From positions 2,240,001-2,304,000 of the forward strand of contig OY969585.1 in the NCBI GenBank assembly GCA_963701295.1: a DNA stretch of 64,000 nt. The letters are read 5' to 3'. A model generated the notes under the pieces. The model had not been told where the DNA came from. It searched no databases and saw only the letters and a program-made list of their open reading frames with translations. The DNA comes from Ignavibacteriota bacterium (GTDB taxonomy: Bacteria > Bacteroidota > Ignavibacteria > UBA10030). Positions 30,701-53,093 of this stretch are shown piece by piece. The position numbers and the translations under genes were made by a program. How positions within the stretch are numbered: position 1 is the first letter of the stretch; every line of letters starts with the position of its first letter.

Positions 30701-31063
30701 TACTGGATCGATCTTCATCAGATGCTCCAAGTATTTGGGCTTGCTCGTCATGACTTGGACGATCAGAAGAAAGTAACAGAAGCGACGCGTATGATTGCGT
30801 CACGTATGCCGACATACATCACGCTGAAGAACGTTAAGAAACGTTGGGGCAAAGGCCAGGAAGATGTCTATCCCACGTTACAATATGAAAAACTCTGGGG
30901 CGATATGACAACCTTGCCGGAACTTCGATGTTTCTACATTGCTGTCCCGCGGGAACGCGGTCAGCAATTAAAAGAGCCGGCACAAATGGATGGCTGGCTC
31001 AGAGATGGATCGGCAGACTATATAGAATCGCTATGCGAGTGGCAGAAAGACAAGAAGAAGTAG
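27728..31063 (+). CDS. Fusion of GHMP sugar kinase (fucokinase-like) and UDPGP/UAP-type pyrophosphorylase
   Basis: [36 protein letters not shown] (GHMP); [25 protein letters not shown] (UDPGP fold). Confidence 0.8.
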
Positions 31064-33112: not shown

Positions 33113-34424
33113 ATGCGAAAAAGATACATTTATGCTTCAGCATTGTTCATTGTTTCAGTAATCATCGGCATAGGTTGGCACTCGACAGTCTTGAATGTTT
33201 TTAAAACAGAAGAGAAGAATCAACCTGTCAAGCTGTACTATGCTGATAATATTTCTCCATCACATCAGTTCGCCATTGACGAGTTTAATCGCCTGCACAA
33301 GGGAAAGATTGAAGTGATTCCCGTCAATCTACCGTTTTCTAAATTCAGGTACGAACGAACGGAAAGAGTTGCTTACACGTTCACTTCGCAGCAAGAGTGA
33401 AAAGCTCGATATCTTTGCTGTTGATCTGATTTGGGTGCCGCGGTTTGCGAAATGGTGTGAGCCGCTGGATTCCTATTTTTCCGCCGATGAGAAACGTCGA
33501 TTACTAAGGGATGCGATGCGGTCGTGTGTGTTCGAAGGAACATTGGTAGCGATGCCGATGTATCTCGATGTAGGTCTTATGTATTATCGTTGGGATATTA
33601 TTCGTAGGTTACCCGATGCGGCTGCGATCGAAAAAAGGCTCCAGGAATCAATTTCCTGGAAAGAAATGGCGCATCTACGCAAGCGGCTTGGGTATATGAA
33701 TAAACCCTTCTTTATATTTCCGGCAAAAGACTTCGAAGGGCTGGTCTGTAATTTCCTTGAATTGGCGGTCGGGGATGACCCGGGTTTTTTGAAATCGAAT
33801 ACCTTTCCAATGCTCTCTCCACCTGCAACGAAATCTCTTCAAATGATGGTGGACTTTGTGAAAGACGGGACGACCCCTCCAGAGGTAACAGACTTCGATG
33901 AATTCTTGTGTAATACATACATGCTTGACCACGATGCTGTTTTTGTACGGAGTTGGCCTGATTTTGTTCAAAGTTTTCGCACTTCTTACTCTGATACGGC
34001 AAAGCTCAAATACATTGCTAAAGCGCCTTTGCCCCATTTCGAAGGAAGATCGTCAACTTCTGTATTTGGGGGCTGGAATTTGATGGTGTCAAAGTCTTCA
34101 ACGAAAAAAGAAGCAGCAATTGAATTTATTCGGTTCTTTCAAAGCGAAAGAATTCAACGGTTGATTTTCGAGCGTACTGGATATTTACCTGCTATCAATT
34201 CTATCTATGAAGACAGTGTATTCCTGCACACCCACAGTGAATTGCCTTTTTTCCACAAATTACTCCATAACGGATTCCATCGTCCTGCGCTTGTCGAATA
34301 TACAAAAGTCTCAGACATTGTTTCTCATTTTACACATCTTGCAATCAAACAAGAACTTTCGGTTAATGAAGCTCTTACTCGCACAGATGAACTGATTCGT
34401 TCCAATGAAGTGCTGATCAAATGA
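33113..34424 (+). CDS. Extracellular sugar-binding protein (SBP family 1), split by a +1 frameshift at 33348-33349
   Basis: ORFs 33113-33400 and 33369-34424 join as LPFSKF-S-TNERKELLTRSL if one G is removed; DIFAVDLIWVPRFA, GGWNLMVS, AAIEFIRF. Confidence 0.85.
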
Positions 34425-35923
34425 TGAGAGTGAACAAGAGAAATCCTCAACGATTTTGGGACAGATACCATAAATATCGGATTGAAATCCGCCATCTCAC
34501 GGTCATTGCACTGGTACTGATTGTTTTCCAGTTCATTGTTCTCTTCATGAATCAGAATTCACTTCGAAAAGTATTTGTCAAATCTCAGCAATGGTATCAG
34601 CAGGATGCCGCTGAACGTATTGCCAATTTAACCACGACTTCCATCGAAATGCTTTTAGAATCGAAAGATTTGAAGGCAAAACTTTCTGACAGCGAAGAAC
34701 GGAAAATCATTCAGGATTTTAACATTATTTTTAGCCAGCAATTGTTAGACAAGAATGTTCAAAGTGTATCTATCCTTATTCCACACGGGAAAGCAATCAT
34801 TGCAATCGACGATGGTAAGCAATTGTATGACTATTTGTTTGGAGAAACGAAAAGGATTCAAAGTTCGGATAGTGTGCATGCCGAGGCAATTCGATTGTTC
34901 CAATCGGTACAGGATACGCTCCGCAAAATAGAACAAACCTACACTGTCGTGGAGCGGGAACAGATATTTCATGTCTTTATTCCGTTCGTTCCTCGTGGAG
35001 AATATGTAGGTGCAGTCTATATGAAAATAACTCCCGATCTTATGTTTCTTACCGATGAAATGTCGAAGAACTATAGTCAGACAGCATTGGTATATTCTGC
35101 TCTCATTATTGTTGGATTACTTGCGATGTTCTATATCTCGACACGGACCCTAACTGAGCGGAATGAAGTGCAGCGGTTGTTATTTGAAGAACAGAAATTG
35201 CACTTGGCAGAACAAATCAATCATCAAAAAGAAATGCTTTTTACCAAGCGAATCTATCATACCCATCATAAGGCTGAAAAAATTGTCGGTTTTATTAAAG
35301 AAGACTTGCGAAGTCTAACGGCTGAAAACATAGGCATCATAAAGAACCGCATCGGCAAATATGCAAGCTTCATTGCCCGGGTGATCTATGATATGAAATG
35401 GTATGATCCGCCCATCCAAACAATTAGAAGCCCGCTGTTTAGAACGAACGTGAATGAGGGCATTCAATTTATTGTGGAAAACATTTTTCAGCGAGTGTCG
35501 GATAACCGACCAGCAGTGAAGTTTGAACTCCAGCTTGATCCCATGATACCTGAAGTTGCCATCAATGAATATGTTATTTGGGAAGTGCTCGAACCGATTA
35601 TCCAGAACAGTGTGGACCATGCTGGGGTAGAGAACAAAGTTGTCACCATTAAAACAGAATACGATCCTGCGCTGAAGCAATCGATTATCACGATTGCAGA
35701 TAATGGAACAGGAATTCGCTCAGATCTTTTGGAGAGTGATGGGAGTGGTATTAAGAAAATATTCCAAGAACAAGTAACCTCCGGCACCTTACCGGGTAAG
35801 GAACACTCTGGATATGGTTGTTATATTGCATATGAACTTGCGACACAGCGCTTCGGTTGGAAGATCGATGTAGAAAACCTTCCAGCCGGAGGATGTAAAT
35901 TTATCTTTATTGCACCGCATTAA
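34421..35923 (+). CDS. Membrane sensor histidine kinase (two TM helices, periplasmic domain, HATPase)
   Basis: N box IIQNSVDH, G1 IADNGTGI, G2 SGYGCYIA; start overlaps SBP stop. Confidence 0.85.
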   Translation: MMRVNKRNPQRFWDRYHKYRIEIRHLTVIALVLIVFQFIVLFMNQNSLRKVFVKSQQWYQQDAAERIANLTTTSIEMLLESKDLKAKLSDSEERKIIQDFNIIFSQQLLDKNVQSVSILIPHGKAIIAIDDGKQLYDYLFGETKRIQSSDSVHAEAIRLFQSVQDTLRKIEQTYTVVEREQIFHVFIPFVPRGEYVGAVYMKITPDLMFLTDEMSKNYSQTALVYSALIIVGLLAMFYISTRTLTERNEVQRLLFEEQKLHLAEQINHQKEMLFTKRIYHTHHKAEKIVGFIKEDLRSLTAENIGIIKNRIGKYASFIARVIYDMKWYDPPIQTIRSPLFRTNVNEGIQFIVENIFQRVSDNRPAVKFELQLDPMIPEVAINEYVIWEVLEPIIQNSVDHAGVENKVVTIKTEYDPALKQSIITIADNGTGIRSDLLESDGSGIKKIFQEQVTSGTLPGKEHSGYGCYIAYELATQRFGWKIDVENLPAGGCKFIFIAPH

Positions 35924-35946
35924 GAAGACAAGGAAAAAGAAATATT

Positions 35947-37410
35947 ATGTCAACTGATGAACGCATACAAGTCTTACTTATTGAGGATGAAGAGTTTGAT
36001 GTTCGCCGAGTACGAAATACACTCAAACCATTCGTGCATCAAATCGAAATTCGCGATGTTGTATCGAATGGTGATTCGGCTTTAGAACTACTTGCGCAGC
36101 ACCATGAGCACTATGATGTGGTGATTATGGATCTTCAGATTGCTGGTGGTACTATGGGGGAAGCGCTGATAAGGGCAATAAAACGAATAGCGCCTTCTCA
36201 TCAAATCATCGTTATTACGAAGATGACTGTCAATATCACAGACTTTGATTTTGCGAATCGAATTCTTCAGGCAGGGGCATTTTGGTACTGTACCAAGTAT
36301 CCCAGTGATATTGAAGATTATATTTATCAACCAACCGACTTCATCCTGAGCATCTTCAACGCGCATCAAAGGAAAAGGCTTGAGAGTGAAAAGTCGCGGT
36401 CAGAAAAGAAGCTGCTGCATAATGTCGAAGGTATGCTGTCCCGTACAAAGATTCTCGGAGTTTCAGAACAAATCCAGAAGATTCGAGCACAAATCAAACA
36501 GTTAGCAATGACCGATGCGACTGTGTTGATTTCTGGTCCATCGGGTACAGGGAAAGAGCTGGTTGCGATCAATATTCATTATGAAAGTAAAAGAAAATTA
36601 GAAAATTTTATTACCATTAATTGCGGCAGCATTCCAGATGAATTGATAGAAAGTGAATTGTTCGGTTACGAGAAAGGTGCATTCACAGGGGCGAATGCAA
36701 ACAAACGAGGACTTTTTGAACAAGCCAATCATGGTACAATCTTTCTTGATGAAGTTGCAGAGCTCCCTCTCGTTGCGCAGGTTAAATTGTTGAGGGTCAT
36801 CCAGGATGGTGAGATCGAAAAGATTGGGAGAACAGGAGAGAAAGTTAAGGTGGATGTACGGATTCTTGCTGCAACGAACAAAGTGTTACAGCAAGAAATT
36901 GCTACCGGGAGGTTTCGTGAAGACCTCTTTTATCGTTTACACGTTGTCCCTCTCTATGCACCTCCTCTCAAAGAGAGACCTGAGGATATTCTGGTTCTCT
37001 GGGAACATTTCATGCGTCAAATGAGTATCGACATGATTAGACCGACTCCTACCACAGAAGAAACCGCTTTTGATGTCCTGAAGAGATATGACTGGCCGGG
37101 CAATGTCAGAGAGATTAAGAATGTCGTACAAAGACTTCTCCTTCGAGAAGAAAACATTATTACTCCGGAAATTATTAAAGAAGTATTGTCTCTTCATCCA
37201 TCATCTCATCAATATTCCGATAGTAATGCAGTGTTCTTTCAGGATTCTGAAAACGCTCCTTCGTTGCGAGAGATGGAAGGCATTTTCAGAAAAAAATATT
37301 TCACATTTATCCGCAAGCATTCTTCGTCTGATGCAGAAGCAGCCCGAAAACTCGGTCTCGCTCCCCCGAATTTTCATAGGATGTGTAAAGAACTTGGGTT
37401 GAAAAGTTGA
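35947..37410 (+). CDS. Sigma54-dependent response regulator (NtrC family)
   Basis: REC (LIEDE, VIMD), Walker A GPSGTGKE, ESELFGYEKGAFTGA, LDEV, FREDLFYRL, WPGNVRE, HTH AARKLG. Confidence 0.95.
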   Translation: MSTDERIQVLLIEDEEFDVRRVRNTLKPFVHQIEIRDVVSNGDSALELLAQHHEHYDVVIMDLQIAGGTMGEALIRAIKRIAPSHQIIVITKMTVNITDFDFANRILQAGAFWYCTKYPSDIEDYIYQPTDFILSIFNAHQRKRLESEKSRSEKKLLHNVEGMLSRTKILGVSEQIQKIRAQIKQLAMTDATVLISGPSGTGKELVAINIHYESKRKLENFITINCGSIPDELIESELFGYEKGAFTGANANKRGLFEQANHGTIFLDEVAELPLVAQVKLLRVIQDGEIEKIGRTGEKVKVDVRILAATNKVLQQEIATGRFREDLFYRLHVVPLYAPPLKERPEDILVLWEHFMRQMSIDMIRPTPTTEETAFDVLKRYDWPGNVREIKNVVQRLLLREENIITPEIIKEVLSLHPSSHQYSDSNAVFFQDSENAPSLREMEGIFRKKYFTFIRKHSSSDAEAARKLGLAPPNFHRMCKELGLKS

Positions 37411-37801: not shown

Positions 37802-37830
37802 TTGACTTTCATATAACGGTTTTCTATACT
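37802..37830 (+). promoter_or_regulatory. Sigma70-type promoter for the receptor operon
   Basis: TTGACT-N17-TATACT, ~90 bp upstream of the ATG at 37923, which has an AGGAG RBS. Confidence 0.6.
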
Positions 37831-37922: not shown

Positions 37923-40900
37923 ATGTCATCGGATAAATACCGAATTCTTGTTTATTTTATTTTACTATTTGCACTGACGGTAAATATTGTTTTTGCGGGG
38001 ACGACCGGAAAAATAGCCGGCAGAGTTGTAGACAAAGAAACTGGTGAACCTCTCATCGGCATTAATGTCGTTGTTAAGGGGACATCTCTGGGCGCGGCTA
38101 CAGATATTGATGGGTACTATGCAATTCTATCTGTTCCGCCTGGTATCCATACTACTATAACGAGTATGGTCGGTTATTCTACGGTCACTGTGAATGAAAT
38201 ACGCGTTCTTATAGATCAGACTGCAACTGTTAATGTTGAAATGGTATCTCAAGCAATTGAAGCAGGGGTTGTTGAAGTCGTCGCAGAAAGAAATGTTATT
38301 AAAAGGGACGTATCCACAAGTGTATCTGCAGTGGAGCCGGAAGAAATTCAATCCCTTCCTATATCCTCCATTGATCAAGTTGTGGGTTTACAAGCCGGAG
38401 TTGAGGATGGCATGGTTATTAGAGGAGGCAGTTCGGATCAATTACTTTTGCAAGTTGATGGTATTACACGGCGTGATCCGAGAAACAATAATCCCATTTC
38501 TTCAGTTGCATTAACTTCAGTTGAGGAAGTTTCAGTTGAAAAGGGAGGATTTAATGCTGAATATGGACAGGTACAATCAGGTGTTATAAATATTGTCGGA
38601 AAGGAAGGAGGTGTTGCTAAATATTCTGGTGCACTGCAAGTCAAAGTTAGCCCTCCTGCTCCTAAGAACTTTGGAATATCTGTTTACGATCCTAATTCTA
38701 TGTGGAATAGACCCTATTTAGATCCTGCCGTGTGTTGGACGGGAACAAATAACGGTAATTGGGATTATTATACACAGCGGCAATATCCTACTTTTGAAGG
38801 CTGGAATGCTGTATCCCAAAGACTTTTAGCGGATAATGATCCGACGAATGATCTTTCTCCTGCTGCATGTCAACGTGTATGGGAATGGGAACATAGAAGA
38901 AGACCAAGCACAGATCAACCCGATTATAATATTGATGCGAGTCTTGGCGGCCCTGTACCAATTATTGGTGGGGTTTTAGGCAATCTTCGGTTCTTTACAA
39001 GTTTTATTATGGATAGAGAAATGTTTCTTATTCCTCTTACCCGTGATGATTACAAAAATTATGACTGGTCGATGAAGATAAATTCAGATATTAGTAAAGA
39101 TGCTAAATTGATGCTCACTGCTTCGACCGGTGCATTGTACACCACTGGTATGAATACTGAAGAGAATTATTTAAATAACCCTACTACTTTTGGCATTGCT
39201 AATGGAAGTACACCATATAATCCTACTGGATATTTCAGTTCACCAATATCAATTGCACAGGTGCTTACAGACCAAAGGGACAGCAAAATTTATTCTGATG
39301 GATGGTACAGCGGCGTTACTGTAAATTATCTCACATTAGCCGGAAAATTTACTCAAGTTGTTAGCCCGAGCACATTCTATGAAGTTAATGTGGAACACGT
39401 TGGCAGGAAATATCAGGCAGGTCCCATAGCTGCTCGAGATACTGCAAAAATCTATGAAGTAGTCCCTGGTTATTTTGTAGATGAAGCTCCATACGGGTAT
39501 AGTGCCACTTCGGCTAATTCTCCAATTTCAGGTATGTTCCTCGGAGGTCATTCAGGTGAATTAATTGATTCCAGTGTCGTCAATTCTTATACAGCAAAAT
39601 TTGACTTAACGAGTCAAGTGAACAAATCAAATATGGTTAAGTTTGGAGTTGAATTCAATACATACGATCTGAAATTAGACTATAAAGAAGTTGTTCCTGG
39701 TTATGGTGGTCTTAATGCTGTTAATGAAGACTGGAAACCTTATGAATTTTCTTCATATGTGCAGGATAAAATAGAGATGTACGGATTTATAGCCAATGTT
39801 GGCTTGAGAATGGATGTCAGCAATCCAAATACAGAATGGGTTGCGGTTGATCCGTTTGATCAAGCTTATTATTCGAGTAGTTACAATCCCGATGCTACCT
39901 ATCCCGAACAGAAAGCCCGTGTTGATGTTTCCTTTAGCCCGCGTATCGGTATATCGCATCCTATTACAGAAAATTCAAAATTATATTTTAATTACGGGCA
40001 CTTTAAGGAATTACCTTCGTACCAGGAAATATTCAGAATTGGTCGTGGAGCTACTGGTAGTGCATCAAATATGGGTGACCCCAACTTGACTCAGGCAAAA
40101 ACAATTGCTTATGAATTAGGTTATGATCATGTTCTTTTTAATAATTACTTGTTGCAAATTCAGGCTTATTACAGAGATATTTCAAATGTTCTTGGATATA
40201 CTAATTATACAAGTGATCTCAAAGGTGTTGGTTATTATTTAGCTACGAATAACAATTACGCGGATACCCGAGGTTTTGAGGTAACAATCAGAAAATCCGA
40301 AGGTGATTGGGTAAGGGGCTTGGTGACGTATACTTATCAGGTCACTACGAATGGTGCATTTGGACAAGCTGCTGTCAACGATGATCCGGCTGTGCAAAGG
40401 CAATTAGACGAGACTACGCAAAGCTTATATCAACAAAAACCGGTTCCTCAGCCACATGCGCGAGCAAGTGTAACATTTTTAACACCTAAAGATTTTGGGC
40501 CAAATTTCGCAGGGATTAAACCTTTAGATAGCTGGTCTCTTAATGTTTTGACAGATTGGCGTGCTGGCGCGTGGATAAATTATAATCCAAATAATGCACC
40601 TGAATACCAAAATATTCCCAATGTTCAATGTTCAGATTATTTTAATATGGACCTTCGGTTAAATAAATCATTCAATTTTGGGAAATTTAATTTGATGGTT
40701 TTCATGGAGGTAAGGAATTTATTTAATATTCAAAGGTTGTCAGGAAAAGGGTTCTATGATAGTTTCGATCAGCAATTTTATTTTCAGTCGTTACATCTGC
40801 CAGGAAGTACTGCGTATGACAATATTCCTGGTAGTGATCGAGTTGGTGATTATAGAAAAGATGGTGTTGCTTTTCAACCAATAGAACAAAGTGGTAATGT

Positions 40901-41120
40901 GTATGCTGAAACAAATATTCGTCCTACTGCAATATATTATAACACACCTACTAAAGAGTATATGAGATATGCAAATGGTAGTTGGTCGCAAGTGCCGAGC
41001 GGCGAAATGAACAAGATCTTAGATGATAAAGCTTATATTGATATGCCAAATGACAGCTCAGTAAATTTTCTGGATCCGAGGCAGTTTTTCTTCGGAATAA
41101 ATTTATCATTTAATTTATAA
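37923..41120 (+). CDS. TonB-dependent receptor-like outer membrane protein with N-terminal carboxypeptidase-regulatory-like domain
   Basis: GKIAGRVVDKETGEPLIG..GAATDIDGYY, plug IRGG..VDGI and GGFNAEYG..SGVINI, SPRIGISHPI, C-terminal FFFGINLSF strand. Confidence 0.88.
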   Translation: MSSDKYRILVYFILLFALTVNIVFAGTTGKIAGRVVDKETGEPLIGINVVVKGTSLGAATDIDGYYAILSVPPGIHTTITSMVGYSTVTVNEIRVLIDQTATVNVEMVSQAIEAGVVEVVAERNVIKRDVSTSVSAVEPEEIQSLPISSIDQVVGLQAGVEDGMVIRGGSSDQLLLQVDGITRRDPRNNNPISSVALTSVEEVSVEKGGFNAEYGQVQSGVINIVGKEGGVAKYSGALQVKVSPPAPKNFGISVYDPNSMWNRPYLDPAVCWTGTNNGNWDYYTQRQYPTFEGWNAVSQRLLADNDPTNDLSPAACQRVWEWEHRRRPSTDQPDYNIDASLGGPVPIIGGVLGNLRFFTSFIMDREMFLIPLTRDDYKNYDWSMKINSDISKDAKLMLTASTGALYTTGMNTEENYLNNPTTFGIANGSTPYNPTGYFSSPISIAQVLTDQRDSKIYSDGWYSGVTVNYLTLAGKFTQVVSPSTFYEVNVEHVGRKYQAGPIAARDTAKIYEVVPGYFVDEAPYGYSATSANSPISGMFLGGHSGELIDSSVVNSYTAKFDLTSQVNKSNMVKFGVEFNTYDLKLDYKEVVPGYGGLNAVNEDWKPYEFSSYVQDKIEMYGFIANVGLRMDVSNPNTEWVAVDPFDQAYYSSSYNPDATYPEQKARVDVSFSPRIGISHPITENSKLYFNYGHFKELPSYQEIFRIGRGATGSASNMGDPNLTQAKTIAYELGYDHVLFNNYLLQIQAYYRDISNVLGYTNYTSDLKGVGYYLATNNNYADTRGFEVTIRKSEGDWVRGLVTYTYQVTTNGAFGQAAVNDDPAVQRQLDETTQSLYQQKPVPQPHARASVTFLTPKDFGPNFAGIKPLDSWSLNVLTDWRAGAWINYNPNNAPEYQNIPNVQCSDYFNMDLRLNKSFNFGKFNLMVFMEVRNLFNIQRLSGKGFYDSFDQQFYFQSLHLPGSTAYDNIPGSDRVGDYRKDGVAFQPIEQSGNVYAETNIRPTAIYYNTPTKEYMRYANGSWSQVPSGEMNKILDDKAYIDMPNDSSVNFLDPRQFFFGINLSFNL

Positions 41121-41136
41121 ATAAGGAATAACGATA

Positions 41137-43683
41137 ATGAGATGTGATAATAATAGAATGAGAACTTATTTGGGAAAAATTGCAATTGCTGTATGTTTTT
41201 ACTTTGTGTTTACAATTGTAAATTTTCAGCAGCTCAATGCACAAGGAGTTGTGGGGACGGAACCGCAGGTAGTAAAATGGTTGTCGACAAGTGCATTACG
41301 TTCTTGGTTCTCGAATCTGGGAGCAGAAATTGAATTTGGAAGGCGAGACAGGCAAACATATATTGCTGTAGATCAGATTGATGGGTTATGCTGGCCGAAT
41401 GAATTTAATGTAAGAATGAAGGGTGTAAAGGCAGCAAAAGCATTGTGGATTGGCACAACAAATTTTACTGATCCGGTTTCCAATGCCAATTATCCATATA
41501 AAGTCGTTTGCATTGGAAAAGACGGAATATATCCAGGAACGGAGATTTTTGCAGATGAATTATCTTTAATAGGCAAATTTCCACATCCCAATGTCTATGT
41601 AGATGAGACACGTGCTTCCGCACGCGATTATGATGATATTATTGATGAACAAGATAATACTCAAGCTGCAGACAGAGTAATGATGAATAGATTTCATACA
41701 AGTATTGGAGTGTCTGTAACAAGGAAAGTATTGTCTTTTTCTCAACAGTATAATAATAACTACTATATTTATGAATATACGTTAAAAAACACCGGCATTA
41801 TTGATGAAAGCGGTCAGAAAAAAATAAATAATACTCTCACGGGAGTTGTATTTTATACTCAAACCCGGGTATCCCTCGATGGGGTATCGTATACTGGAAT
41901 AGGGTTAACAGGCGCTGGTGGTTGGGCTCCCTCTGGAACTACATGGGGCAGAAATACAATTACTGATGTAATGAGAAAAGATGGCGATAACCCAGGCGAA
42001 TTCAGAGCTAATATTTCCTATTGGGGACCAATGTCCACGACTCCTTATGGAAGCCCGGCAGGAGATATTGGCCTCCCCGGACCGGCTTCGACAAATGTGA
42101 CGGAATTGGCAGGATATGAGTTTGTAGGAACTGTTGTATTGCATGCAGATAATGCGCCTGGTGATCCGACGGATGATATAACACAACCAAAAACAACGTT
42201 GTATGTAGGGGCCGACAATCCAATTGACCGAAATAACCAACCAACTCAATATAACTCAAATTTGATGGCGCAAAAATATGTATCCTATATGACTGCAGGC
42301 CACGGTGGACAAACTGAGGCGCAGCAGGTAGGAGAAGATGCAAATGGTTGGCCAACTGGACCTGGAAATACTTTTGGAACAGATGCGGGTGGATATATGT
42401 CCGCGCAAGGTTTTGGGCCATATACTCTTAACCCCGGAGATAGCATACGTATTGTGGTAGCAGAAGCTGTCGCAGGTATAAACTGGAATAAAGGATGTGA
42501 AGTTGCAAGAAATTGGTTTGCAAATAATACTTCTGCATTTATCCTTCCTGGCCCTCCTGGCTATAAAGGTGGCACGACAACGGATAAGAATGAGTATAAG
42601 AATGCCTGGGTGTTTTCAGGCAAAGATTCTTTATTCCAGACGTTCAGAAGGGCATTAGCAAATTATAATAGTAACTATGCGATACCGCAGCCGCCCCCGC
42701 CACCGGATAAATTCTTAGTTAATTCGGGTGGGGATCGAATAACAGTTTCTTGGTCTAACAGTGCCGAATCGAGCCCACATTTTGACGGATACAGGCTCTA
42801 CAGGAGTGAGGGCAAAACAGACACAACGTATGACCTCATTCTTGATTGCGGCAAGAGTACGGGTAATCTTGTAAATTCATATGCTGATCAAAATGCGAAA
42901 CGTGGATTTAACTATTATTACTATATTCAATCGAAAGATGATGGATCAACTAACCCCGGCGATGCTGCTCTCAATATAGCTGCAGGTGAACCCTTAGTAA
43001 GCAGCAGATATTATACGATGACGAATAACCCGGGATATCTCACACGTCCTGCTGGAGTTGCTCTAACAACTATATCTAACACTTTTACCTTCAAAGGTAA
43101 TGATACTCTTGTGAATTTTGGATTTCCACCGGGGGTATCTGTCGCAGATTCTACAGGCACCGTAGTGAATGGTATATCCGTCAGTGTCAATGGTGTCAGG
43201 CAAATTCCTGCATTATATACAATATGGGTTAACCCAACAAGACTTCTTAGTCCTGGCGTTTTAAGACCTGATACATTAAGATTTGTTGTACCTCCGCTTG
43301 GGACAATTGAGGTAAAAGTAATATCTCCAACCGGCAATAGGAGCTATAAACTTTCAGAAATAAGAGTTGTTCCAAATCCTTTCAATATAAAAGCGAGGAA
43401 CATTCAATATGGAACGGCTGATCCGACAACTTTGGATCGACTGGGATTTTTTAACTTACCGCCTATCTGTCAAATAAAAATCTATACTGAATTGGGTGAT
43501 TTAATTGCAACAATAAATCATACGAATGGTAGTGGCGACGACTACTGGCAATCACTTACTTCTTCAAGACAAGTCGTTGTGAGCGGATTATATATAGCTT
43601 ATATTGAAGTTACTGAGAATTCTTCTGATGGGAATTATAGAAAAGGTGATAGTATTGTTAAGAAATTTATTATCATTAGATGA
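41137..43683 (+). CDS. Large exported protein with Pro-rich linker, FN3-like domain and variant T9SS-type C-terminal domain
   Basis: Signal peptide; PQPPPPP; ITVSW..DGYRLYRS..YYYY; IRVVPNPF..FNLP..IKIYT..GDLI..SGLYI..KFIIIR. Confidence 0.75.
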   Translation: MRCDNNRMRTYLGKIAIAVCFYFVFTIVNFQQLNAQGVVGTEPQVVKWLSTSALRSWFSNLGAEIEFGRRDRQTYIAVDQIDGLCWPNEFNVRMKGVKAAKALWIGTTNFTDPVSNANYPYKVVCIGKDGIYPGTEIFADELSLIGKFPHPNVYVDETRASARDYDDIIDEQDNTQAADRVMMNRFHTSIGVSVTRKVLSFSQQYNNNYYIYEYTLKNTGIIDESGQKKINNTLTGVVFYTQTRVSLDGVSYTGIGLTGAGGWAPSGTTWGRNTITDVMRKDGDNPGEFRANISYWGPMSTTPYGSPAGDIGLPGPASTNVTELAGYEFVGTVVLHADNAPGDPTDDITQPKTTLYVGADNPIDRNNQPTQYNSNLMAQKYVSYMTAGHGGQTEAQQVGEDANGWPTGPGNTFGTDAGGYMSAQGFGPYTLNPGDSIRIVVAEAVAGINWNKGCEVARNWFANNTSAFILPGPPGYKGGTTTDKNEYKNAWVFSGKDSLFQTFRRALANYNSNYAIPQPPPPPDKFLVNSGGDRITVSWSNSAESSPHFDGYRLYRSEGKTDTTYDLILDCGKSTGNLVNSYADQNAKRGFNYYYYIQSKDDGSTNPGDAALNIAAGEPLVSSRYYTMTNNPGYLTRPAGVALTTISNTFTFKGNDTLVNFGFPPGVSVADSTGTVVNGISVSVNGVRQIPALYTIWVNPTRLLSPGVLRPDTLRFVVPPLGTIEVKVISPTGNRSYKLSEIRVVPNPFNIKARNIQYGTADPTTLDRLGFFNLPPICQIKIYTELGDLIATINHTNGSGDDYWQSLTSSRQVVVSGLYIAYIEVTENSSDGNYRKGDSIVKKFIIIR

Positions 43684-43729
43684 TTTTAGCCATCTATACG
43701 AGAATGTATATCGAATAGGAGATTAAAAC

Positions 43730-44728
43730 GTGAAGCGAAAACAAAATACGTGGTTTATTTTACTAATAATCGGGTTATGTACATCCATGACCTTTGGTCA
43801 AACAAAATTGGCCCAGACAGGATTCAATTTTTTGAGTCTCTCTTCTGATGCGAGATCGAGTGGATTAGGCGGCGCTGTAAATTCATTATCAGGATTCGCG
43901 GGAGCGATGTGGTCTAATCCGGCTTCTATGGCTGAAATGCCAACATATCTTAGCGTTTCTTTTGATATGAATAGATGGATAGCCGATATCAATTACTTGT
44001 CGTCTAGCGTGATCCTATCACCTTCTTCGGGAGATTATGGTACGTTCGGCCTCTGTGTGCAAACTGTTGATTACGGAGATCTTGATGGAACAATGGTTGA
44101 TAGGAATAATCCGAATGGATATGTTGAGACTGGCACTATAAATCCTACCGCACTTGCGGTAGGTCTTGGTTATTCTAAAATGATTAATAAGCAATTTGGA
44201 GTTGGTGCACGAATCAAATACGCATATCAATCGCTCGGTGAAAGTACGTTTTTCGATAATGTATCAGGGGATGTTACGACAAAGAAAAACAAAGCTGATG
44301 CAATTGCGTATGATTTTGGCACGATTTACAAGACAGGTATAAAAAGCATAGTATTTGGAATGTCGGTGACGAATTTTTCGAAGGAGATAACATTTGAAAG
44401 TGAAGGTTTTCAGCTTCCTTTGCTTTTTACAATTGGTATTTCAGCCAATCTTTTTGAGCTTATCAACACTCCACAATCTAATCAAGAGCTCTTGCTGACT
44501 GCTGATTGGAGTCACCCGAGATCACATCCTGAACAATTAAAAATTGGAGCAGAATATAGATTCAAACAATTACTTTCTCTGAGGGCTGGATACGTTAGCG
44601 GTAACGATGAAAACAGCTTCACTTATGGAGTAGGCATTTCTTCCTTCGGTCTTGAAGTTGATTATGCATATATCCCGTTTGGAGTATTTGGTAATGTTCA
44701 GCAATTCACAGCACGTGTTTCATTGTAA
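43730..44728 (+). CDS. PorV/PorQ family outer-membrane beta-barrel
   Basis: FLSLSSDARSSGLGGA, WSNPA, GAEY..LRAGY, VDYAY; 332 aa. Confidence 0.85.
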   Translation: MKRKQNTWFILLIIGLCTSMTFGQTKLAQTGFNFLSLSSDARSSGLGGAVNSLSGFAGAMWSNPASMAEMPTYLSVSFDMNRWIADINYLSSSVILSPSSGDYGTFGLCVQTVDYGDLDGTMVDRNNPNGYVETGTINPTALAVGLGYSKMINKQFGVGARIKYAYQSLGESTFFDNVSGDVTTKKNKADAIAYDFGTIYKTGIKSIVFGMSVTNFSKEITFESEGFQLPLLFTIGISANLFELINTPQSNQELLLTADWSHPRSHPEQLKIGAEYRFKQLLSLRAGYVSGNDENSFTYGVGISSFGLEVDYAYIPFGVFGNVQQFTARVSL

Positions 44729-44746
44729 AAAGTGTAAGGGTAAATT

Positions 44747-46102
44747 ATGAAAAATGAAAAATTAAATCAGAGTATTTTTTCGAAAAGGACTTTTGCGAAG
44801 GGATGTATCTCACCTTGGTCGATTTTTGTTGCGTGTTGTATATTGATTATGCCGATACTTTTTATCGCTTGTGAATACGATAACAAGCCCGGAGTGATAT
44901 ATCCTGCAATGACGATCGATACCACCGGTAGGCCAGTTATTGCCAGCATTGCACCAGCGACTCAAGCTAGTGCAGGAGTGAGAGAAATAACAATCACTGG
45001 TGTGAATTTAGGAATAAAAAATGGCACGGATTCAATGTGGGTTTTTATTGGTGGTGTGCGACCAATAATCAAAGAAATACAGAATTCATATATAACTATA
45101 TATAGACCGCAATTATCAAGTGATCATTATGGCAAACCTATTTATGTGAGTGTCACGGATCCAAAAATATTGTCTGTATCTTCAAGCCTTACATACTCGG
45201 TAGAGTCCCCAGGTGCTGTTGTAGGAGCTTATGCTACCGCTACCTTTCCAACTCTACTGGCTGCCGAATGTGATAACCAAGCACAAGAAAATGTTTATAC
45301 GACTGCGGCGAAAAATGTCTGGAAAACCGATTTTGCAGGTGTAACACAGACCAATGAATTAAATCCAGTCAATTTATTGTCAAGTGACTATGCTTCAATT
45401 ACGGCTATGTCCTTTGGTCCGGGAGCGTATGAGAAAAATCTCTTTATTGCAGTTGGCAAAACCTATATTGCACGCGTGTTTGTTGCCGACACCACATCAG
45501 GTAATAAAAAGTATATACCCACAAAACTAACAGTTCCTGGAGCAGTGAGCCAACTGGACTTTGACGGAAATGGTAATATGTACACTGGTGGTAATGGAAA
45601 TCTTTATGTTGCTGATTCATCAGTTGGCACCAGCGCTGCTCCAACTTTTACTCCAATTTCGGGTTATACGGGTGGAAATATAACAAAAATTCGCGTAGTC
45701 AAAGAATCAGGCAATCAATATCTTTATGTTGCTGATTCTACACATGTTTGGAAAAGTCCAGCGGGAAGTTCTTTCAATGGCACTCTCTTGGTTGATTTGA
45801 GTACTCATCCTGAGTTAAGCGGATGTACCATTAGTTCATTTGATCTTGATGTAAATAGCTCTATTTTCCTATGCTTAAAAAATAATCCGAATTATTCGTT
45901 GTTTATAAGAGAAAACGATGGAGCTATTACTCCATTTTATAATGATCCAAATATTTTACCGAACACTGTTACCAAGCTGATGTGGGGTAATAGTAAGTAC
46001 CTATATTTAATGAGTACCACATTAACCGTAGATGGCAAAATATATAGGTTGACGTTAGATAGAAATGGAGCGCCTTACCAGGGCAGAGCATTTATAAAAT
46101 GA
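44747..46102 (+). CDS. Lipoprotein with IPT/TIG-like domain and beta-propeller-like region
   Basis: Lipobox-like FIAC; PVIASIAP..GVREITITGVNLG; FDGNGNMYTGG, LYVAD repeats. Confidence 0.7.
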   Translation: MKNEKLNQSIFSKRTFAKGCISPWSIFVACCILIMPILFIACEYDNKPGVIYPAMTIDTTGRPVIASIAPATQASAGVREITITGVNLGIKNGTDSMWVFIGGVRPIIKEIQNSYITIYRPQLSSDHYGKPIYVSVTDPKILSVSSSLTYSVESPGAVVGAYATATFPTLLAAECDNQAQENVYTTAAKNVWKTDFAGVTQTNELNPVNLLSSDYASITAMSFGPGAYEKNLFIAVGKTYIARVFVADTTSGNKKYIPTKLTVPGAVSQLDFDGNGNMYTGGNGNLYVADSSVGTSAAPTFTPISGYTGGNITKIRVVKESGNQYLYVADSTHVWKSPAGSSFNGTLLVDLSTHPELSGCTISSFDLDVNSSIFLCLKNNPNYSLFIRENDGAITPFYNDPNILPNTVTKLMWGNSKYLYLMSTTLTVDGKIYRLTLDRNGAPYQGRAFIK

Positions 46103-46378
46103 TAAAGTTTTTTTTGTTATGAGAAGGTGTGATAAAAACATCTAATTAAAAAACAGTTGATTTCTATATAATAAACAATTATCGTACAGTTAAGGTATTA
46201 TTTATCCAGTTGTGTGAAGGTCATCATATATAGAGGAAAGGAGGTACATAAAGGAAGAAACTGGTCACCAACGATTAAGAAAGGAGGAGTTTTTAAAATG
46301 GGGGGAAAAAATCTAAATGATATCTTTGGATACCTGCTAGATCAAATAATTCAAAAAAACAATTTTGGAGAAAACAAC

Positions 46379-48130
46379 ATGAAAAATGTACTATTATTTC
46401 TTCTTTGTCTGGTTTTTGTTGCCAGTCTAGTTGAAGCAAAGATAGTGAATGACAGTGTGTATCAAATTCCTAAAACAGCAGTGGCACCAGTGATCGACGG
46501 CCTACAAGACAATGTATGGAAAACTCTCGACTGGAATATGCAGCGGATTTACAATGTTGGCGATCCTCCAACTGCAACGAGCGGAGCTGATAGCGGTGCT
46601 GGTCTTACTGGTATGAGCAAAGCAATGTGGGATGCGAATAATCTTTATATTTTGTTCTACTCGATAGATGATATTCTCATAGATGTTCCGACGAACGCCA
46701 ATTGGAACCAAGATGCTATCGAAATCTACATTGATGGATCCGATAACCATGCCACAGAGACTTCCTTAGCAGCTGGTCAATACCAGTTTACTATTCCTCA
46801 TTGGCTAAAGGGCCAAGAAGTTGGGCATATCGGTACCGCGTTTGGGACTACTATTGACACAACCGGTATTCAATTCAAAATTTCCGATGTGGGTGATACT
46901 CTAGGTTTCCCCGGCTGGATGCTTGAAGTAAAGATTCCTCTTGCAGCTTTAGGCATTGATGGCACAACGGCGGATAATGCAAATATTGGTTGGGAATTAC
47001 AACAAGACGAATCGGATGACGCGACAATTGGACGACAATCCATGTCGAAATGGTGGAGTAGTTCAAACAATTCGTGGGCAAATGCAGGCATTTGGGGCAC
47101 CGCTATTCTTTCCAGTAGAAGTGTAGATACTGTATTTGAAATAAGCAAAGTGCCTACCGGTACAACTATAACTGTTGACGGAGTAATGGATCCGATCTAT
47201 AAACAAGCAAATGCTGTTACAATGAATTTGTTTAGAGTTGGAGATCCTCCCACTGCAGAAAGTCCGGTTGTAGATACAGATCCAATGTTCGGTTCATTCA
47301 TTACAGTTCGTCCACTTTATGACGATAATAATATGTACCTATTTTGCGATGTTGTGGATCAGGTTCTTGTAGATGTTCCGACGAACGCCGCATGGAACCA
47401 AGATGCTGTTGAACTCTACTTTGACGGATCCAATAACCATGCGACAGAGACTTCCTTAGCAGCTGGTCAATACCAGTTTACTATTCCTCATTGGCTAGAG
47501 GGCAAGGAAGTTGGGAATATCGGTACCGCGTTCGGGACTACTGTTGATACAACCGGTATTCAATTCAAAATGGTCGATCATGATATGGTAGGCAATAATG
47601 GCGTCATCACTGAAGAAGGAAGCGGTTATTATTTGGAAGTGAAGATTCCTCTTGCAGCTCTTGGAATTGACGGAACAAATCTCGGAGCAGGACTTGGATT
47701 CGAATTACAAAAAGATCAAAGTAATGACGCATCAGTAGGACGCGGAGGTATGGAAAAATGGTGGAATAGTTCAAACAATTCGTGGGCAAATGCAGGCATT
47801 TGGGGTTATGCAAAGTTGGGTTCCGCGATTGTTACGGGCGTAAATGGGAAACCATCGTCTGTCGTCAGTAGCTACAAACTGGAACAGAACTATCCGAATC
47901 CTTTCAACCCATCCACAAAAATTACTTTCGAACTTGCAAAAACTGAGAAAGTAAGGCTTGCAGTTTATAATTTATTAGGAGAGCAAGTTGCAGTATTGGT
48001 AAATGGAACGAGGAATGCTGGATCTCAGACCATTACTTTTGATGCAAAGAACTTTGCTAGCGGTGTTTATTTCTATAAATTAGAAGCTGGAAGCACAGTG
48101 TTAACAAAGAAGATGATGTTGCTGAAGTAA
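46379..48130 (+). CDS. T9SS-sorted protein with two tandem CBM9/DOMON-like sugar-binding domains
   Basis: Signal peptide from ATG 46379 (GGAG RBS); twice PVIDG/TVDG..WD..NLY..QDA(I/V)E(I/L)Y(I/F)DG..LEVKIPLAALG; CTD LEQNYPNPFNPST..KKMMLLK. Confidence 0.85.
   Translation: MKNVLLFLLCLVFVASLVEAKIVNDSVYQIPKTAVAPVIDGLQDNVWKTLDWNMQRIYNVGDPPTATSGADSGAGLTGMSKAMWDANNLYILFYSIDDILIDVPTNANWNQDAIEIYIDGSDNHATETSLAAGQYQFTIPHWLKGQEVGHIGTAFGTTIDTTGIQFKISDVGDTLGFPGWMLEVKIPLAALGIDGTTADNANIGWELQQDESDDATIGRQSMSKWWSSSNNSWANAGIWGTAILSSRSVDTVFEISKVPTGTTITVDGVMDPIYKQANAVTMNLFRVGDPPTAESPVVDTDPMFGSFITVRPLYDDNNMYLFCDVVDQVLVDVPTNAAWNQDAVELYFDGSNNHATETSLAAGQYQFTIPHWLEGKEVGNIGTAFGTTVDTTGIQFKMVDHDMVGNNGVITEEGSGYYLEVKIPLAALGIDGTNLGAGLGFELQKDQSNDASVGRGGMEKWWNSSNNSWANAGIWGYAKLGSAIVTGVNGKPSSVVSSYKLEQNYPNPFNPSTKITFELAKTEKVRLAVYNLLGEQVAVLVNGTRNAGSQTITFDAKNFASGVYFYKLEAGSTVLTKKMMLLK
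46681..47805 (+). repeat. Intragenic tandem duplication (period ~690-708 bp)
   Basis: 54-bp identical tract 46754-46807 = 47444-47497; 39-bp identical tract 47059-47097 = 47767-47805. Confidence 0.9.
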
Positions 48131-48149
48131 CATCAAAGGTAGATCAAGG

Positions 48150-48188
48150 AAAGCGTCTGTGGCAGACCTTGCACAGGCGCTTTTTTTT
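48150..48188 (+). terminator. Rho-independent terminator closing the receptor operon
   Basis: AAGCGTCTGTG / CACAGGCGCTT stem followed by a T8 tract. Confidence 0.8.
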
Positions 48189-48228
48189 GTCAATTTGAAA
48201 CACTTTGTAGCCCTTGGAGTTATGCAAA

Positions 48229-50187
48229 ATGAATCTACATATCGTTGATATCGGAATTATCCTTTTATATTTAACTTCTACAATATTTATTGGATTCTAT
48301 ATTTCTAAAAAAGCTACCAAGGATATGAATAGTTACTTCCTTGGAGGCAACCGCATTCCTTGGTGGGTTCTTGGCATTTCTGATGCTTCGGGTATGTTTG
48401 ATATTTCCGGTACGCTGCTTTTAGTCTATTGGCTTTCTGTGTACGGAATGAAAAGCATATGGATACCTTGGATATGGCCGGTGTTTAATCAAATATTCTT
48501 AATGGTCTATTTATCGCCCTGGCTGCGAAGATCAAATGTGATGACAGGTGCAGAATGGATGAAAACCCGTTTTGGGACGGGAAAGGGTGCTACGCTTTCC
48601 CATATCGTAGTAGTGATATTTGCTCTTATTAGTGTTATCGGATTTCTCTCTTATGGGTTTAAAGGAATTGGAAAATTCGCCGTAGCATTTTTGCCAGCAT
48701 TGGTTACCAATCCGGAAACACTGGCTCACTACCCTCAAATAAATGCAAATCTGTATGCTCTTATACTTATGGGAGTAACGACGTTGTATGTTGTGAAGGG
48801 TGGGATGATGAGTGTCGTTGCAACGGAAATTGTTCAATATTGTATCCTTTCAATTTCCGCGATTGCAATAGGTATTATTGCAATGGTCAATGTCTCCCCG
48901 GCTATGATTAATAGTGTTATCCCGGAAGGATGGAAAAGCATGGCTTTTGGCCTGAATTTGAATCTGGACTGGTCGACAGTACATTCAAGTCTTGCTACAA
49001 AAGTAGTTGCTTTCAATCAATGGATTAAAACAGACGGCTATTTTATTTTTGGATTATTCTTTGGAATGATGCTCTTTAAAGGGTTCTTTGTTGCGGCAGC
49101 GGGTCCTGCGCCTAATTATGATATGCAGCGCATTCTTTCTACGCGAAGTCCGAAAGAAGCAGCTAAAATGAATTCCATGGTGAGTATTGTCCTAAATCCA
49201 ACCCGTTATTTTATGGTTGCAGGAATAACCGTACTTGCCCTGACAAATTTTGATGCACTTTATAAAAGCTCTATAACTACTCCCGATTTTGAAGGTATTC
49301 TATCTCAAGTTCTCGCCACTTATGTCCCTGTTGGCTTATTGGGTCTGCTGATGGCCGGTTTTATAGCTGCCTTTATGAGTAATTTTGCAGCAACTGTCAA
49401 TGCTGCACCTGCGTATATTGTCAATGATATTTATAAGCGTTATATCAATCCTCATGCAGAGCCAAAAAAATATGTCAGGATGAGCTATATTGCATCTGTT
49501 GCTGTTGTTATTGTTGGGATTACAATCGGATTCTTTGTAGAATCAATTAATCAGGTTGCACTTTGGATTGTTGCTTCGTTATGGGGCGGTTATACAGCAG
49601 CCAACGTCTTAAAATGGTACTGGTGGCGTTTCAATGGATATGGATATTTTTGGGGAATGGTTGCAGGTATGACGACTTCGTTAGTGCTGCTTATATTAAA
49701 AGACTTTGGTTTGATACCATTCTTGAATCATTGGCCTTTGTCCGAAAATTCAAGTATGAATTCGTTCCCCTTTATCTTTCTCAATTCTATCATCGGATGT
49801 TTAATCGGCACCTTCTTAACGAAACCTGAAAGTGATGAAGTGCTCATGAAGTTCTACCACAATGTTCGTCCTTGGGGCTTCTGGAAACCGATCTATGAAA
49901 AAGTTATGAAAATTGACCCAGAGTTTGAAGCGAATAAGAATTTCAAACGTGATATGTCTAATATCTTCGTTGGAATTATATGGCAGATAACACTCATGGC
50001 TACTCCGGTATTTTTAGTTCTTCGAGATTTCCATTCGTTCATGATTTGCCTTGGTGTGTTGGCAGTGACTTCACTTATATTAAAGTTCAATTGGTGGGAC
50101 AAACTTGAATCTTCGTATGGTGAACAAAAAACTAAATTCATATTTCCAGTGTCAGAGAATGGGACTTTAGTAGCGAAAAAAAAATAA
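48229..50187 (+). CDS. Sodium:solute symporter (SSS family), probable sugar/oligosaccharide transporter
   Basis: SYFLGGNRIPWW, Y..KGGM.SV..T, QRILSTRS, AAFMS; many TM helices. Confidence 0.9.
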   Translation: MNLHIVDIGIILLYLTSTIFIGFYISKKATKDMNSYFLGGNRIPWWVLGISDASGMFDISGTLLLVYWLSVYGMKSIWIPWIWPVFNQIFLMVYLSPWLRRSNVMTGAEWMKTRFGTGKGATLSHIVVVIFALISVIGFLSYGFKGIGKFAVAFLPALVTNPETLAHYPQINANLYALILMGVTTLYVVKGGMMSVVATEIVQYCILSISAIAIGIIAMVNVSPAMINSVIPEGWKSMAFGLNLNLDWSTVHSSLATKVVAFNQWIKTDGYFIFGLFFGMMLFKGFFVAAAGPAPNYDMQRILSTRSPKEAAKMNSMVSIVLNPTRYFMVAGITVLALTNFDALYKSSITTPDFEGILSQVLATYVPVGLLGLLMAGFIAAFMSNFAATVNAAPAYIVNDIYKRYINPHAEPKKYVRMSYIASVAVVIVGITIGFFVESINQVALWIVASLWGGYTAANVLKWYWWRFNGYGYFWGMVAGMTTSLVLLILKDFGLIPFLNHWPLSENSSMNSFPFIFLNSIIGCLIGTFLTKPESDEVLMKFYHNVRPWGFWKPIYEKVMKIDPEFEANKNFKRDMSNIFVGIIWQITLMATPVFLVLRDFHSFMICLGVLAVTSLILKFNWWDKLESSYGEQKTKFIFPVSENGTLVAKKK

Positions 50188-50230
50188 CAGAAAAAGGATA
50201 CAATGTTAGGAGTATGATCGTGAAGAAAGA

Positions 50231-50262
50231 TACCCCGGTTTCTAAACGCCGGGGTAGTTTTA
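50231..50262. repeat. Hairpin resembling an IS200/IS605-family end, with no transposase
   Basis: TACCCCGG-N10-CCGGGGTA followed by GTTT. Confidence 0.4.
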
Positions 50263-50463
50263 TAGTATACTGCTGTCAGCAAGCATCCGCTTATTATAAA
50301 GGGCATCTTATGACCCTTCATAAAGAAAGAATATTTCCCCATTCCTTAGCGAATTATAACATCGTCAGGAATTGTCTTCATACAATTCAGTATAGAATTG
50401 GATTTAAATATTGATAAAAATTGCAGGAAGTAAAACGGATAGAATTCCTATCAACTAATAAAC

Positions 50464-50781
50464 TACCTCGGAGAAAGCTACGAGGTATTCAATCTGTTTC
50501 TTCTGGATTTCTCGCCTGCAGGACGATTAAAATCCGTTCCTCTTCATGGAACGAGATCTTGTCTCGAATCAATGAATCGAGACGGACATTCGGGAATGAC
50601 TTGAATATTGTTGAAAGCTGACATTAGCTTCATTCTCAGACTTCTCACCGTCATGCCCGTGGGATTTTGCGTTTTGTGCATCTACCGTCTTCTTAAAGGA
50701 TAGGCGGGCATCCATTGAATGCAGCAACCTGCCCGCCGGGCACTTACAGCGTGCTTATGGTAGGCAGGACTGCGGGGTATT
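50464..50781. repeat. Cluster of nested REP-like palindromes
   Basis: TACCTCG/CGAGGTA; CTGGATTTCTCGCCTGC...CGGGAATGAC; CGTCATGCCCG...CGGGCATCCA; GCAGCAA[CCTGCCCGCC...GGTAGGCAGG]aCTGCGGGGTATT. Confidence 0.65.
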
Positions 50782-50804
50782 AAACGCGAAAAGGAATAAG
50801 TTTT

Positions 50805-53036: not shown

Positions 53037-53093
53037 ATAAAGCTAATTCAAGAGAATATAACGATCTAAATAACTTTCACTAGAGGAACATTC

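Follow-up and report, generated by a model that had tools for sequence, protein, structure and literature searches.

A TonB-dependent receptor, a secreted partner protein of 848 amino acids (aa) and an outer-membrane barrel of the PorV/PorQ family are encoded side by side in a 64,000-nucleotide stretch of the genome of an Ignavibacteriota bacterium (assembly GCA_963701295.1, contig OY969585.1, positions 2,240,001 to 2,304,000; this whole stretch is called the window below). We find that these three genes form a conserved core: the feature is real, and it is kept across several phyla. By analogy with known cargo-barrel pairs we propose, with evenly balanced confidence, that the barrel retains the uncut C-terminal tail of the partner and so displays it beside the receptor, where it would capture sugars or act as a lid in the role of SusD. 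At this locus the core is part of five plus-strand open reading frames (ORFs) at 37923-48130:

37923-41120, + strand: TonB-dependent receptor of a non-SusC subtype, 1065 aa; core gene
41137-43683, + strand: secreted partner, 848 aa, belonging to no Pfam or NCBIfam family; core gene
43730-44728, + strand: PorV/PorQ-family (FadL-like) barrel, 332 aa, NF033709; core gene
44747-46102, + strand: lipoprotein with an IPT/TIG domain and a likely beta-propeller, 451 aa; frequent fourth gene
46214-48130, + strand: tandem CBM9-like protein that ends in a C-terminal domain (CTD) of the ordinary type A, 638 aa from the first GTG; accessory

The order of the three core genes is conserved across phyla

At least 497 relatives were confirmed in a scan of GTDB, and 80 loci were kept for counts, drawn from Ignavibacteria, KSB1, Calditrichota, Marinisomatota, Kryptonia, Rhodothermales, WOR-3 and other taxa. 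This sample favors module genes because the search patterns came from the partner's tail; in it, the receptor lay directly upstream of the partner in 70 of 72 assessable loci, a PorV-family barrel was encoded within three genes of the partner in 72 of 75, and both arrangements were found together in 63 of 67 assessable loci. The converse test, which started from receptors in 30 relatives, is free of the tail-search bias. It placed a partner directly downstream of 33 of 35 receptors of this subtype, the other two being partial matches, and a receptor upstream of 33 of the 37 listed partners. Ten triads from other classes all kept the order, three of them without the lipoprotein. An earlier note, written from the letters of this DNA, had raised the possibility that the receptor-CTD-PorV order is shared among genomes of the Fibrobacteres-Chlorobi-Bacteroidetes group, and the 63 of 67 loci, spread over several phyla, bear it out.

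The host genome (G000) is a single contig of 3.64 Mb, 99.3% complete. Fourteen of its genes pass the PorV-family cut-off, and ten of these stand in the order receptor, variant-CTD protein, barrel. Five of the ten partners belong to the 848-aa family, each with an IPT lipoprotein after the barrel; the other five are about 1150-1280 aa long and share just a helix-FN3 segment and the tail with that family. One further PorV-family barrel directly follows porU. Split genes were seen at three of the ten triad loci. Several genes of this genome are broken by a frameshift or stop, namely a solute-binding protein (window 33113-34424), sprA, one receptor and two partners (G000 3470808-3477759, 2874333-2877581, 2508043-2510504 and 2010761-2014214); either errors of assembly or genuine decay may account for the breaks.

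A variant tail is paired with its own barrel

The partner begins with a signal-like N-terminus. A predicted beta-supersandwich with linker helices spans about residues 40-515, an FN3 domain about 520-640 and an insert of variable sequence about 640-735, before the variant CTD at about 738-848 (VVPNPF ... KFIIIR). At E 0.01, neither any Pfam or NCBIfam family nor the PF18962/TIGR04183 type A CTD models matched the protein. A search of the PDB with the single sequence returned no match, a search of the Atlas returned unnamed clusters only, and the closest named relative, from an Ignavibacteriae metagenome-assembled genome (L011), is 75% identical. A structure model built from an 88-row alignment reached a mean predicted local distance difference test (pLDDT) score of 86.9, the insert being of low confidence. 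In this model the supersandwich resembles the N-terminal domains of GH15, GH65 and GH94 enzymes (VIA Z up to 18.1, root-mean-square deviation (rmsd) 3.3-4.2, about 260 residues aligned) at about 10% identity, and it also resembles mutarotases (Z 13.3) and some lyases (Z about 12-13). The match is a shared fold in a predicted structure and shows no function. The partner was rejected as a GH15/65/94 enzyme because the model lacks an (alpha/alpha)6 catalytic barrel and holds only linker helices before FN3. The tail matches the CTD of PorZ (5m11; VIA Z 12.4, rmsd 2.4, 94 residues aligned), a profile search with the partner hit FN3 and PorZ 5m11 (E 4e-4), and the predicted tail thus has the C-terminal Ig-like fold of type A cargo of the T9SS (type IX secretion system).

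The barrel scores 178 bits on the PorV family model NF033709 (cut-off 90) and lies below the cut-offs of the two equivalog models, NF033710 and NF033711, for PorV (70 of 250 bits) and PorQ (85 of 220 bits); it also has a weak FadL/Toluene_X match. Neither the type B CTD (PF13585) nor a PorP-family barrel was matched at the locus at E 0.01. In a 37-row tree, for which 22 rows were sampled from among the locus barrels, the barrels of loci with an 848-aa-type partner form one cross-phylum clade (support 99/97) apart from the PorV beside porU; branches are long and deeper placement is unsure.

The pairing of tail and barrel genes is strict in the host genome, where 117 proteins have a PNP motif close to the C-terminus. 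All ten of them that carry the variant tail, [VI][VF]PNP[YF], are followed directly by a PorV-family gene, as against 2 of the 107 others. One of the two is PorU; the other is a 516-aa protein encoded in front of two further barrels, which would be PorZ-like judging by position only. In independent metagenome loci, a PorV-family barrel follows 1 of 87 ordinary-CTD genes, and of four module-type genes, two have a barrel directly next and two have it past one extra gene. The tail itself can be told apart by profile: five distant partners score 49-69 bits on a module-tail profile and 13-21 on an ordinary one. An unnamed family of 134-389 aa proteins with lipoprotein-like N-termini is encoded between partner and barrel in 32 of 72 loci (e.g. 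L012:10208-10909). All 32 fall in one BLAST cluster that has no BLAST match in G000, and one member has a weak HmuY match (E 7e-5).

The receptor is a TonB-dependent transporter of a non-SusC subtype

By Pfam, the receptor carries an N-terminal carboxypeptidase-regulatory-like domain, a plug and a TonB barrel, and the model (pLDDT 86) shows the plug and a predicted 22-strand barrel; there are seven TonB_C matches in the genome. The protein scores 89 bits on the SusC model TIGR04056, whose cut-off of 368.25 is passed by no gene in G000. All Foldseek matches of the model are TonB-dependent transporters (TBDTs), with a best TM to query of about 0.45-0.49, and none of the solved TBDT structures matches it closely. 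Two predicted outer loops (about residues 244-333 and 932-1053) are very large, conserved and confidently folded, the first being among the best-conserved stretches of the protein. Such loops, as modeled, could dock a partner or form a cover of the receptor's own. The receptor is co-inherited with the partner (rho 0.80), the two trees having 30 of 45 supported splits in common. Covariation between the two proteins was also computed over 64 paired rows (top pairs z 7.7 vs. 6.2 when shuffled), and we did not use it because the top pairs are dominated by clade-defining positions.

The triad dominates where SusD is rare

Polysaccharide utilization loci (PULs) of Bacteroidota use SusC/SusD pairs. 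The SusD models PF07980, PF14322 and PF12771 had no match at the locus or in the whole host genome, and a Bacteroides thetaiotaomicron control was positive. We then surveyed 151 genomes of the phylum, 37 in the host's class and 114 outside it. Within the class, 35 of 37 genomes matched the partner profile, 17 of them over most of its length, and SusD was found in nine, with one or two matches each. Outside the class, SusD was present in 70 of 114 genomes and a full-length partner in 22, of which 20 also hold SusD. Mutual exclusion of module and SusD was therefore rejected, and the module is not simply a SusD replacement: it dominates where SusD is rare, yet does not exclude it. The three other-class triads that lack the IPT lipoprotein (L091, L092 and L097) sit among ASPIC/UnbV FG-GAP genes or beside a separate receptor-SusD pair, and the two designs can thus share a neighborhood.

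Several claims of the earlier note can be judged at this point. It had noted the absence of a SusD-like lipoprotein at the locus, an exported 848-aa protein with a variant CTD behind the receptor and a PorV-family barrel after that; family searches, sequence and the NF033709 score agree on all of these. Its suggestion of an alternative PUL unit in the place of SusD stands in part: SusD is absent here, the gene order is conserved, the tail is a distinct subtype tied to its own barrel clade, the partner's predicted fold is of a carbohydrate-enzyme type and the context is glycan-related, and against it, the unit coexists with SusD elsewhere. Of the outcomes named in that note as refuting its reading, a SusD match and a gene order that varies were both looked for, and neither came out.

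A candidate mechanism and its alternatives

In the mechanism we propose, the partner would be exported by Sec, as its N-terminus suggests, and would pass through SprA; both sprA and porU are in the genome, the C-terminal part of SprA in a separate ORF. It would then be handed to its cognate barrel, not to canonical PorV, so that PorU leaves the tail uncut. We infer this hand-over by analogy with PorZ-PorQ, PorU-PorV and the type B cargo-PorP/SprF pairs, and the gene pairing at ten of ten loci supports it. The non-catalytic supersandwich, going by its predicted fold, may bind an oligosaccharide above the large loops of the receptor; TonB-driven import would follow, and then the sodium:solute symporter and GH94 phosphorylase encoded downstream. 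The IPT lipoprotein and the CBM9 protein would be optional surface helpers. Cellodextrin-type beta-glucan fragments are the likely substrate at this locus, given the GH94 and CBM9 genes. The confidence in the whole is evenly balanced because it compounds two parts: that the cognate barrel retains the tail, which we regard as quite probable, and, granted that, that the partner serves the receptor directly, by capturing sugars or as a lid, which we think somewhat favored.

The partner might instead work beside the receptor while still held by its barrel, either as a binder comparable to SGBP-B and SusE-F, which have a surface glycan-binding role, or as a supersandwich enzyme, with the receptor closing itself by its loops; we find this doubtful. 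What speaks for it is that the supersandwich is also ordinary cargo: among 122 homologs longer than 600 aa, 39 combine it with an ordinary CTD, often in fusion with beta-helix or BNR domains, and of the two ordinary-CTD genes examined neither has a receptor or PorV gene as a neighbor. These two loci are all that this last point covers, as the metagenome scan gave mostly CTD-only matches, and only L103 and L105, both module loci, held the sandwich domain. The domain therefore needs no receptor in order to work, and "lid" is one of several possible roles; such ordinary-tail proteins at the same time strengthen the tail-barrel rule. Examples of the ordinary-CTD supersandwich-FN3 form include L101:7770-10706, L102:6643-10690 (beside a GH31 gene) and P0028-P0049. 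The same alternative can also point to the mutarotases and lyases that use the fold, to the receptor's own large, confidently folded predicted loops and to E64, R180, R244 and D360, invariant in 64 module rows. None of these charged residues is invariant in the wider 88-row alignment, however, where N218 is the only invariant polar residue of the sandwich. The partner's place directly past the receptor in 33 of 35 cases also fits poorly with independent action, as do the recurrent tandem receptor-partner pairs, some without a barrel gene of their own (L069, L073, L075 and L079), which follow the SusC-SusD pattern.

It is unlikely, in our view, that the true lid is the IPT/propeller lipoprotein, with the CTD protein as an accessory, on the model of BtuG and XusB, which are beta-propeller lipoproteins. 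Lids other than SusD, all of them lipoproteins, have indeed been described for Bacteroides TBDTs in the portion of 10.1101/2023.03.17.533168 that treats them, and here a lipoprotein follows the barrel in 59 of 68 GTDB loci, with a lipobox-like motif in 46 of 50 relatives. On the other hand it was not seen beside five of the ten G000 triads or beside three of the ten triads of other classes, it never adjoins the receptor, and no other gene of the unit is so poorly conserved (27-68%). We regard as improbable a role of the barrel as a private secretion shuttle or FadL-type channel, the partner being processed and either released or attached to lipopolysaccharide like ordinary cargo. PorV carries type A cargo out of SprA, according to passages of PMC10994853 and PMC9143113, and the weak FadL/Toluene_X match would suit a channel. 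One barrel per cargo at ten loci fits a one-to-one anchor better, and we prefer the anchor because none of the other roughly 105 cargo proteins comes with a barrel gene for itself. That the unit handles cell-wall fragments, peptides or other large nutrients in place of plant glycans, its carbohydrate-active enzyme (CAZyme) neighbors being secondary, appears very improbable. The neighbors at some loci are amidase, GHL10, beta-lactamase-like, polA or PhoH genes, and one G000 copy sits among housekeeping genes; against this, the regulator, CBM9, symporter and GH94 genes travel with the module in a sub-clade, and LacI, ROK, SSF and GH genes recur at other loci.

Several observations weigh against the proposed display of the partner as a lid. 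Besides the ordinary-CTD supersandwich proteins, the coexistence with SusD in 20 of 22 genomes and the lipoprotein lids of Bacteroides, set against a lipoprotein at this locus too, the flanks of distant loci offer sugar-related families in just 18 of 57 scanned genes, the others including polA, PhoH, beta-lactamase-like and methyltransferase genes. Receptor-partner co-inheritance is what any operon would be expected to give. PorU (13 bits on the module-tail profile vs. 53 on the ordinary one) and the PorZ-like protein both score higher on the ordinary-tail profile, and the module tail is therefore not simply of the PorU/PorZ type but a subtype of its own. Finally, searches of G000 for GldM and GldN gave no match, as did the controls, which leaves the secretion route uncertain, in a genome with about 117 CTD-like proteins beside SprA and PorU.

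Neighboring genes and the five-gene form

The remaining features at the locus are:

33113-37410, + strand: upstream trio of solute-binding protein, histidine kinase and sigma54-type response regulator
48149-48188, + strand: intrinsic terminator-like hairpin and T-run, -19.6 kcal/mol
48214-55532, + strand: downstream sodium:solute symporter (SSF), GDSL/TPR protein and GH94 enzyme

The five ORFs, in the order first described, are separated by gaps of 16, 46 and 18 bp among the first four. These ORFs and the hairpin at 48149-48188, which is missing from the plus-strand list of a simple terminator scan, support the five co-oriented genes and closing terminator of the earlier note, and family scans uphold its sigma54 sensor upstream, in the form of a histidine kinase and a sigma54-type response regulator, and its symporter and GH94 downstream. 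All five genes of its proposed module are present here; the conserved part is the three-gene core. Five genes as one fixed unit were rejected, since a CBM9 homolog occurs in just 14 of 80 loci; the five-gene form is therefore the locus of one sub-clade and CBM9 an accessory. The symporter, regulator and kinase have homologs in 16, 11 and 9 of the 80 loci, respectively. In one relative (L025), the kinase, regulator and symporter are 93-95% identical to those of the window and the five module genes 27-61%; comparing these sequences, the surface cassette looks to have been exchanged as a block between conserved flanks.

The lipoprotein has a TIG match, and its Atlas neighbors combine TIG with NHL/SGL. 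The CBM9 gene product carries two PF06452 domains and a PF18962 CTD of the ordinary type A. A ribosome-binding site and a signal-like N-terminus at 46379, 276 bp past the lipoprotein gene, indicate that this is probably its true start. A second copy, 98.5% identical, lies about 210 kb away (G000 2495656-2497572), and the duplicated stretch (window 46125-48169) takes in about 250 bp of upstream DNA and the terminator; it is a recent duplication of the CBM9 gene alone.

No sigma54 -24/-12 site was found upstream of the receptor by a simple pattern search; a sigma70-like site lies at 37802-37830, and such matches occur at chance frequency (67 vs. 58.5 expected). The solute-binding protein gene is split by a frameshift near 33300-33400. 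The GH94 enzyme is most like cellobiose phosphorylase by sequence (1141 bits to 3qde vs. 460 to chitobiose phosphorylase). With kinase, regulator, CBM9, SSF and GH94 genes co-located, the locus is a PUL in the broad sense. A search of sequencing runs listed no RNA run and one DNA run with 0.14 of the words. Elsewhere in the window, a nucleotidyl transferase gene is followed by one for a 1111-aa protein (both within 26865-31063) whose middle looks GHMP-kinase-like by eye and whose C-terminus is a UDPGP domain; it is perhaps a sugar-salvage enzyme that arose by fusion. Proteins of the DUF362 family are usually cytoplasmic; two paralogous ones at 55743-57728 and 59858-61759 bear CTDs, i.e. are secreted versions, and a related N-terminus adjoins the module copy at G000 2867346.

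Novelty and significance

We found no description of the triad in the literature searched, which left subscription papers and supplements outside its scope. Passages of PMC10994853 and PMC12635249 do not mention the phyla concerned, and part of a xylan locus of Rhodothermus marinus (Rmar_1070-1072), a candidate instance of the triad, is tabulated without comment in part of PMC6987092 as a receptor, a CTD hypothetical and a second hypothetical protein. The triad is apparently undescribed, with known parts in a new arrangement. Tentatively, and with rather less than even confidence, we suggest that it represents a second, lipid-free design for glycan import in Ignavibacteria, KSB1, Calditrichota, Marinisomatota, Rhodothermia and their kin, in which a T9SS protein with a third class of tail, locked in its own PorV-like barrel, closes a TonB receptor as a two-barrel complex. 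If so, type IX secretion, possibly without its usual motor, would be coupled directly to nutrient import; a T9SS without a known motor would be a question in itself.

PULs are found by searching for susC and susD. Genes of that pair are scarce in gene clusters of Ignavibacteriales despite many CAZymes, according to a section of PMC10576277, and the triad would supply the missing marker of carbohydrate uptake in several abundant, mostly uncultured phyla of sediment, soil and sea. The cognate PorV-like barrels of CTD proteins have been hypothesized, in part of PMC10202324, to protect CTDs from cleavage; ten natural cargo-barrel pairs in one genome would allow swap tests of such selection or protection.

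Comparison with known systems

By position and context the triad is SusC/SusD-like, without being a member of that family. As in SusC/SusD (RagA/RagB), a TBDT with an N-terminal extension is followed at once by a dedicated exported partner, paralogous copies are many, tandem pairs occur, and a regulator, an inner-membrane transporter and CAZymes are encoded nearby. Unlike there, the receptor falls short of the SusC model (89 vs. 368 bits), and the partner, a predicted beta-supersandwich, matches no SusD model and is no lipoprotein; a CTD-barrel pair, in place of lipid, is its predicted anchor. Other TBDTs outside the SusC family, with lids such as BtuG, XusB and DUF4876 proteins, likewise have a conserved adjacent partner that could cap them; all lids treated in that portion of 10.1101/2023.03.17.533168 are lipoproteins, and here a CTD protein takes the adjacent position. 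With the GH15/GH65/GH94 enzymes the partner shares, as modeled, the fold of the N-terminal supersandwich (galactose-mutarotase fold) and the linker helices, and it continues with FN3 and a CTD in place of a catalytic barrel.

The proposed anchor resembles PorZ-PorQ and PorU-PorV, in each of which a PorV-family barrel is paired with a CTD protein of type A fold; the predicted tail matches that of PorZ (Z 12.4). According to part of PMC10202324, the CTDs of PorU and PorZ stay on PorV and PorQ, and a CTD is bound to the loops of PorV in passages of PMC10994853. In contrast to these single housekeeping parts of the secretion machine, ten extra pairs here stand beside nutrient receptors, and they differ in tail subtype and barrel clade from the PorU and PorV of the same genome. 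Type B cargo and its PorP/SprF barrel (SprB-SprF; PG1035-PorP) also combine a cargo gene with a clustered gene for its own 14-strand barrel, to which the cargo is bound and by which surface anchoring has been proposed, in the relevant part of PMC9143113; the tail here has no CHU_C match, the barrel is of the PorV/PorQ and not the PorP family, and the pair is tied to a TBDT. BamG, another FadL-like barrel, holds a surface protein as well, according to a portion of PMC12611786.

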